From Shigella phage sb1: DNA of 64,000 nt. The notes under the pieces were generated by a model. That model was not told the origin of the DNA. It did not search any database and saw nothing but the letters and a program-made list of their open reading frames with translations. The position numbers and the translations under genes were made by a program. How positions within the stretch are numbered: the stretch's first letter is position 1; the number at the start of each line of letters is the position of its first letter. The DNA lies in the sequence record PQ666539; one strand, 5' to 3'. Shown in pieces: positions 5,025 to 5,834 of the stretch.

Positions 5025-5834
5025 ATGCTTAAAGAACAACTGAGTGCCGAAGCGCAAAAAATTGATGCTTCCGTTGCTCTTGATAGTATTTTCGAATAAG
5101 TTAATATTTCTACGGAAGCAAAAGAAACTTTCGGCAATGTATTCGAAGCTACCGTCAAGCAGCACGCCGTTAAATTAGCTGAATCTCATATCGCTAAAAT
5201 TGCTGAAAAAGCAGAAGAAGAAGTAGAAAAAAATAAAGAAGAAGCCGAAGAAAAAGCTGAGAAGAAAATCGCTGAGCAAGCTTCTAAATTCATCGACCAT
5301 CTTGCGAAAGAATGGCTCGATGAAAATAAATTAGCAGTTGATAAAGGCATCAAAGCCGAACTGTTTTAATCCATGCTTGGTGGATTAAAAGAGCTCTTTG
5401 TTGAACACAACGTTGTTGTTCCAGAAGAATCAGTTGATGTTGTAGCTGAAATGGAAGAAGAGCTGCAAGAACATAAAGAAGAATCAGCTCGTCTGTTCGA
5501 AGAACTCAATAAGCGCGACGCATATATTAATTATGTGCAGCTTGAAGTGGCATTGAGCGAAAGTACTAAAGATCTGACTGAGTCTCAAAAAGAAAAAGTC
5601 TCTGCTCTGGTCGAAGGTATGGATTATTCAGATGCATTCTCAAGTAAATTGAGTGCCATCGTAGAAATGGTGAAGAAATCTAATAAAGATGAAAGCACTA
5701 TTACTGAGGGTATAAATACTCCTGATACTGAAGCAGCCGGACTGAATTTCGTCACTGAAGCTGTAGAAGATAAAGCTGCACCTGGTGCAGAAGATATTGT
5801 AAGTGTATATGCGAAAGTCGCATCTCGTTTCTAA
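5025..5834 (+). pseudogene. 22: prohead scaffold protein gp22, frame interrupted by two in-frame TAA codons (5097..5099 and 5367..5369)
   Basis: single frame from ATG 5025 to stop 5832..5834 (270 codons) translates to the recalled T4 gp22 sequence apart from two TAA codons. Confidence 0.85.
5711..5718 (+). promoter_or_regulatory. late promoter TATAAATA inside 3' end of gene 22 (gene 23)
   Basis: exact consensus ~135 nt upstream of gene 23 ATG. Confidence 0.55.

Follow-up and report, generated by a model that had tools for sequence, protein, structure and literature searches.

Two stop codons within scaffold gene 22 of Shigella phage sb1 most likely reflect unselected G:C>T:A noise in the sequence record

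The two in-frame TAA codons that interrupt gene 22 in the record of Shigella phage sb1 most likely stem from artefactual substitution noise in the record, on which selection has not acted, rather than from the biology of the phage, a reading to which we assign a probability of about 0.88. The sequence analyzed, referred to here as the window, is the last 64 kb (1-64000) of a Tequatrovirus genome and is colinear with Shigella phage pSs-1 (NC_025829.1) from approximately position 100,968 to the last base. Megablast searches with the segments 1-25000, 25001-50000 and 45001-64000 retrieved hundreds of Tequatrovirus records with best identities of ~95-97%. The actual phage almost certainly carries TCA (Ser25) and GAA (Glu115) at the two sites and encodes an intact 269-aa gp22.

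Gene 22 occupies the frame at 5025-5834 on the + strand, which comprises 270 codons on translation (269 plus the stop) and lies between gene 21 (4356-4994) and gene 23 (5853-7418), with the same synteny as in all relatives. Its conceptual translation reads MLKEQLSAEAQKIDASVALDSIFE*VNIS...KAELF*SMLGG...ASRF*. The first in-frame TAA (5097-5099, + strand) falls at codon 25 and results from C>A at 5098, where relatives have TCA (Ser), and the second (5367-5369, + strand) falls at codon 115 and results from G>T at 5367, where relatives have GAA (Glu). Translation of 5025-5834 bears out the original prediction, which had placed these stops after ...ALDSIFE and ...KAELF and had noted that the ORF track displays only the C-terminal 153 aa. 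This residual ORF (5373-5834, + strand, gp22 residues 117-269) is the sole gene 22 ORF listed, and no Shine-Dalgarno-like sequence is visible upstream of it (ctgttttaatccATG). An uninterrupted ORF of ~269 codons is therefore lacking in the window, whereas all relatives have an intact gene.

With the stops replaced, gp22 matched the Pfam family PF25623 (T4_CASP; E 1.6e-87, profile positions 2-244 of 247) and PHROG 237 (head scaffolding protein; E 7e-90), in agreement with the earlier assignment of the remainder of the 270-codon frame to gp22. In T4-type proheads, gp22 serves as the major scaffold and is essential; profile match and synteny together identify the window gene as the one for this T4-type prohead core scaffolding protein. 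It shares with T4 gene 22 the position between genes 21 and 23, the length of 269 codons and the end-to-end profile match, and differs in six G:C>T:A changes absent from every relative, of which two create the in-frame TAA codons and four are missense. The gene holds eight private substitutions in total, six of them G:C>T:A and each of these six non-synonymous (S25*, P30T, T38N, A99D, E115* and R173L). Apart from these six changes, the gene shows ~99% identity to relatives without indels, and with the stops set aside gp22 has about 97% amino acid identity to Tequatrovirus orthologues.

Alignment to reference gene 22, which had been proposed as a check, confirmed both stops against the TCA and GAA of the relatives. 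Among loci with flanking sequence, TCA at 5097-5099 and GAA at 5367-5369 were found in six GenBank loci and seven IMG/VR loci, and the EPIMRB01 orthologue reads SIFESVNIS and AELFESMLGG at the two sites. The exact DNA pattern containing the first stop had no match in IMG/VR, and exact protein searches with the N-terminal gp23 fragment, the 153-aa gp22 ORF and gp21 of the window likewise gave no match. Across 524 phage records covering 5030-5430, the top identity was 98.3%; this ceiling matches the seven private differences of the window in the 401-nt stretch, none of which is shared by the best records. At the level of sequence comparison, the gene 22 stops are thus shown to be private to this sequence.

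The original prediction treated the stops as a feature of gene 22, and this framing was not upheld. A survey of the 89 pSs-1 coding sequences lying wholly inside the window region, mapped onto the window, identified 29 premature in-frame stops (23 TAA, 3 TGA and 3 TAG) in 20 of the 89 orthologous genes, so that the same type of lesion is present in 19 genes besides gene 22. Essential genes with stops include 22, 23, 27, 29, 48, 32, 34, 35 and 36. G>T or C>A alone accounts for 27 of the 29 stops, through the codon changes GAA>TAA, GAG>TAG, GGA>TGA, TCA>TAA and TAC>TAA. The two exceptions are codon 1185 of gene 34, which combines G>T with G>A (GAG>TAA, two changes; 54211-54213, + strand), and codon 274 of gene 23, encoding the major capsid protein, where TTA>TAA involves T>A (6672-6674, + strand) and leaves two ORFs at 5853-6674 (273 aa) and 6702-7418 (238 aa).

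Genes 27, 29, 48 and 51 are hub and tube genes, and genes 34, 35 and 36 are tail-fibre genes. On the + strand, the hub and tube genes carry TAA in gene 51 (16664-16666, GAA>TAA), TGA and TAA in gene 27 (17689-17691, GGA>TGA; 18130-18132, GAA>TAA), TGA in gene 29 (18952-18954, GGA>TGA) and TAA in gene 48 (20739-20741, TAC>TAA). The tail-fibre genes, also on the + strand, carry three further TAA codons in gene 34 (51772-51774, TCA>TAA; 51841-51843 and 52702-52704, both GAA>TAA) and one each in gene 35 (55164-55166, GAA>TAA) and gene 36 (56285-56287, TCA>TAA). The single-stranded DNA-binding protein gene 32 is interrupted at codon 9 (48265-48267, - strand, GAA>TAA), and nrdA contains adjacent TAA TAA codons in place of GAA GAA (43452-43457, - strand), the one at 43452-43454 being common to the sibling record sb4. 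TAA is also present in uvsW.1 (14130-14132, + strand, GAA>TAA), uvsY (15196-15198, - strand, GAA>TAA) and the spanin gene (38072-38074, - strand, GAA>TAA, likewise common to sb4). On the - strand, TAG interrupts alt (24504-24506) and, twice, alc (38251-38253 and 38437-38439), in each case by GAG>TAG, and rnlA harbors TAA at its last codon (38720-38722, TAC>TAA), a second TAA (39293-39295, GAA>TAA) and TGA (39446-39448, GGA>TGA). The remaining stops are TAA codons on the - strand in a small hypothetical gene (22641-22643, TCA>TAA) and in two hypothetical genes (30391-30393, TAC>TAA, at a site that is variable among relatives too; 34742-34744, GAA>TAA). With these lesions, a phage genome could neither replicate nor direct the formation of heads, baseplates or tail fibres, and it would yield no virions.

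Gene-interrupting frameshifts were absent among the mapped window genes. Relative to pSs-1, every indel length was divisible by three except for a single 1-nt gap, which lies in a small gene annotated at different coordinates in pSs-1 than in other relatives. Several other differences in gene boundaries were observed. The hypothetical gene with the stop at 34742-34744, which is small, has also lost its start codon (34805-34807, ATG>ATT); the start of gene 34 at 50662-50664 is CTG where relatives have ATG (A>C); and the gene upstream of motA has lost its terminator at 62939-62941 (TGA>AGA). At the gene 51 terminator site (17108-17110), CAA is present in the window, sb3 and HP3.1 and TAA in pSs-1, a difference that resembles natural variation and not an error, the end of gene 51 being shifted by a few codons downstream. 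Gene 67 (3692-3931) is 18 nt shorter than in pSs-1, in frame; since the same 240-nt form is annotated in EPIMRB01 and HP3.1, this represents natural length variation.

The origin of the stops is best seen in the substitutions of the window as a whole. Private changes were defined as positions at which all relatives agree and the window differs, using ten relatives with five to six of these available per position. Among 780 private substitutions in the window, 274 (35%) were G:C>T:A, divided on the + strand into 139 C>A and 135 G>T. This load corresponds to 1.18% of all G:C pairs, or about 4.3 per kb over 1-64000. The same procedure applied to seven ordinary relatives gave 5-11% G:C>T:A (pSs-1, 10/189; ECp13, 4/79; phage 132, 7/163), and the share in sb3 was 7%, so that the class is 3- to 7-fold over-represented in the window compared to relatives. 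The changes are spread in a near-Poisson manner, with 9-26 per 4 kb and, per 2 kb, a mean of 8.6 and a variance of 11.2. G>T and C>A did not form strand runs on the scale of reads, of the kind left by single damaged strands (runs test, p=0.24), and changes within 50 bp of each other showed a weak same-strand tendency (51/87). Mild clustering was seen within 20 bp (39 pairs observed versus 23 expected). Almost no trinucleotide context was apparent; GCA had the highest rate (1.77%), and a preference for CCG>CAG was absent in the window, CCG being changed at 9 of 730 sites (1.23%) versus 1.18% overall. GCC>GAC was strongly depleted (1/767 sites versus ~9 expected). Undoing the G:C>T:A changes alone raises the G+C content of the window from 35.94% to 36.36%, the level of pSs-1.

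To determine the coding effect of these changes relative to selection, those in cleanly mapped coding sequence were compared with an expectation derived from every possible G:C>T:A change in the same genes. The observed distribution was 9% synonymous, 81% missense (184 changes in the window) and 9.3% nonsense, and the expectation without selection was 9%, 79% and 11.9%, respectively, with binomial p-values of 0.82 and 0.26 for observed versus expected. In contrast, all other substitution classes together were 71% synonymous (316/443) and included a single nonsense change. The other classes show normal purifying selection, and the G:C>T:A class alone is unselected. On this class-wise contrast, the window consists of a diverged, selected phage genome overlaid by an unselected layer of G:C>T:A changes, and the status of these changes as unselected noise is solid.

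The same rate accounts for the number of stops in gene 22. The gene is Glu-rich and contains 54 sites at which G>T or C>A gives a stop. Under normal evolution of an essential gene, two stops in gene 22 are far beyond chance. At the window rate of 0.0118 per G:C site, however, 0.64 stops are expected in the gene and the probability of two or more is 0.13, so that the two stops represent no more than local noise.

The records closest to the window include those of Shigella phages sb2, sb3 and sb4 (PQ666540-PQ666542). Four phages were described in one study, in which ADG1 corresponds to PQ666539 with 164,945 bp (PMC11993411). The isolates of that study indicate that the window likely derives from an environmental isolate and not from a genetic stock (PMC11993411). 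ADG1 has the lowest reported G+C content (35.16%, the other three having 35.35, 35.49 and 35.52%), and 285 proteins or coding sequences were reported for ADG1, 291 for TMC4 (sb4) and 254-255 for the two cleaner genomes (PMC11993411). Over the shared region, we obtained G+C contents of 35.80% for the window, 35.96% for sb4, 36.04% for sb2 and 36.15% for sb3, which reproduces the rank of the published genomes with similar gaps and is in keeping with the window forming the end of PQ666539 (sb1/ADG1).

Two of the sibling records look error-laden as well. The C>A load of sb4 (PQ666542) is unselected, with 64 missense, 18 nonsense and 6 synonymous changes; this record contains 29 private nonsense changes in 39 kb (125400-164971). 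Split genes are annotated in sb2, sb3 and sb4, most markedly in sb4, in which they are alt, DNA ligase, rnlA, td, motA and gene 37. In the record of sb3 (PQ666541), T>A and C>G are in excess and 10 changes are nonsense. Both resemble the window in genus, in the pSs-1 linearisation and in split genes, and sb4 additionally in the C>A excess; they differ from it in that sb4 and sb3 also have an excess of other classes. The error positions of sb4 are mostly independent of those in the window, but nine G:C>T:A changes are common to these two records alone, at 38070, 38074, 38097, 39250, 43385, 43454, 51974, 54075 and 55976, compared to a chance expectation of 1.4 (P about 1e-5). Two of the nine are nonsense changes (spanin, 38072-38074; nrdA, 43452-43454), and three (38070, 38074 and 38097) fall within 28 bp in a 110-bp tract that is identical between the window and sb4. 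Independent random errors are insufficient to produce nine common changes, which would require carry-over or hotspots, and the overlap points to material carried over between samples, or to error hotspots, within a single sequencing batch. The last base of the window aligns with the final base of pSs-1, sb2, sb3, sb4 and Ec_YwIITB1. Although de novo assembly is described in the paper, this shared linearisation suggests that a reference guided the ordering or the building of the consensus.

Collectively, a uniform, window-wide process would have altered ~1.2% of G:C base pairs to T:A without the changes ever coming under selection. The likeliest cause would be an artefact introduced by damage to the template, during library preparation or base calling, or when the consensus was built. 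From the consensus sequence, we infer that the changes originated as errors, as opposed to mutations of the DNA itself, and by which technical route they may have arisen. The libraries were PCR-amplified, enzymatically fragmented and sequenced on a NovaSeq 6000, followed by assembly with SKESA (PMC11993411). The class of change would fit 8-oxoguanine-type damage or a spurious T signal. C>A/G>T changes are a documented signature of oxidative (8-oxoG) library artefacts, which prefer CCG>CAG, occur at low allele fraction with a read-orientation bias (G>T in read 1, C>A in read 2) and arise in acoustic shearing (PMC3616734). The window is similar to the artefact of Costello et al. 2013 (PMC3616734) in the C>A/G>T class, in its non-biological character and in its independence of selection. 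It differs in that it shows no CCG preference, in that the changes are in the consensus and in that the library was probably fragmented enzymatically. Because read-level artefacts normally have a low allele fraction, a further fault would be needed for them to reach a deep-coverage consensus, and low effective coverage, PCR duplicates or a permissive consensus step may have provided this route. As for a spurious signal, the artefact documented for the two-colour chemistry of NovaSeq is T>G (PMC13218037) and was rejected, as T>G is not elevated in the window; one can only speculate that a spurious green/T signal would yield G>T and C>A.

Of the alternatives, the one that survives best, although we consider it unlikely, is that the G:C>T:A changes are physically present in DNA from a heavily oxidatively damaged or mutagenised stock, or from a mutM/mutY-like mutator, of which only a single molecule or a few were sampled. 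In that case, the genome in the record would be real yet non-viable. The spectrum corresponds to the classic 8-oxoG/mutY-type transversion (PMC3616734), the missing shearing-specific CCG context agrees with an origin different from the best-known library artefact, and some changes are common to the sibling isolate sb4. However, a genome with 29 nonsense changes in 20 genes and 184 unselected missense changes in 64 kb cannot propagate, and a bulk lysate consensus would hide such changes unless a single molecule had been amplified. The coding effect also equals the expectation without selection, which indicates that not one round of selection has acted. A more elaborate version, in which a T4-like stock underwent massive oxidative (8-oxoG/mutY-type) hypermutation and the defective genomes were carried by, for example, co-infection or complementation, is about half as credible. 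If true, hypermutation with complementation could account for the few lesions, two nonsense changes among them, that are common to sb4.

Readings that give the gene 22 stops a biological role are far less probable still. For ALTERNATIVES, recoding, an ochre mutant and pseudogenisation were weighed, and the ochre mutant was excluded by the 27 other stops. Genuine ochre conditional-lethal mutations of gene 22, comparable to classical T4 nonsense mutants grown on a suppressor host, would agree with two TAA codons in an essential head gene whose frame is otherwise intact. Such a mutant is nevertheless highly improbable, as 19 other genes are broken by all three stop codons, which no single suppressor rescues, as both gene 22 changes are transversions of the genome-wide class, and as the likely source is an environmental isolate and not a genetic stock. 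Classical T4 amber and ochre mutants resemble the window in having in-frame stops in essential genes, but each of them has one stop or a few, of a single type, within a genome that is otherwise under selection, compared to 29 stops in 20 genes in the window.

The many in-frame TAA codons across genes could alternatively indicate that TAA is read as sense, through reassignment, a suppressor tRNA or programmed read-through. We give this next to no weight, as TAA terminates 58 of 88 orthologous genes (with 25 TGA and 3 TAG), TAG and TGA occur among the in-frame stops, the amino acids lost at these stops are Glu, Ser, Tyr, Leu and Gly, and the stops are not conserved in relatives, save for the two in common with the apparently error-laden sb4. 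Phages with reassigned stops show consistent reassignment, a matching tRNA and depleted use of the terminator, unlike the window. No tRNA genes were found in the window, the T4-type tRNA cluster lying outside it, and ten tRNAs without a suppressor among them were reported for the sibling genomes (PMC11993411). Bypass resembling that of gene 60 was excluded, there being no inserted nucleotides at the stops. Natural pseudogenisation with loss of gene 22 function would explain the interrupted reading frame, but is barely credible for an essential gp22 whose gene is ~99% identical to relatives outside the six changes and free of indels, with gene 23 and other essential genes broken too.

Under the reading of the stops as record artefacts, those in gene 22 have no biological significance, and their value lies in quality control. 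This record and at least one GenBank sibling would carry ~4 erroneous G:C>T:A changes per kb. Such errors break up about one gene in four (20 of 89 in the window), inflate the counts of coding sequences and lower the G+C content. Sorting private substitutions by class and comparing their coding effect with the neutral expectation provides a flag for such records that needs no reads. Unflagged, records of this kind would contaminate protein databases as well as comparative and phylogenetic analyses.
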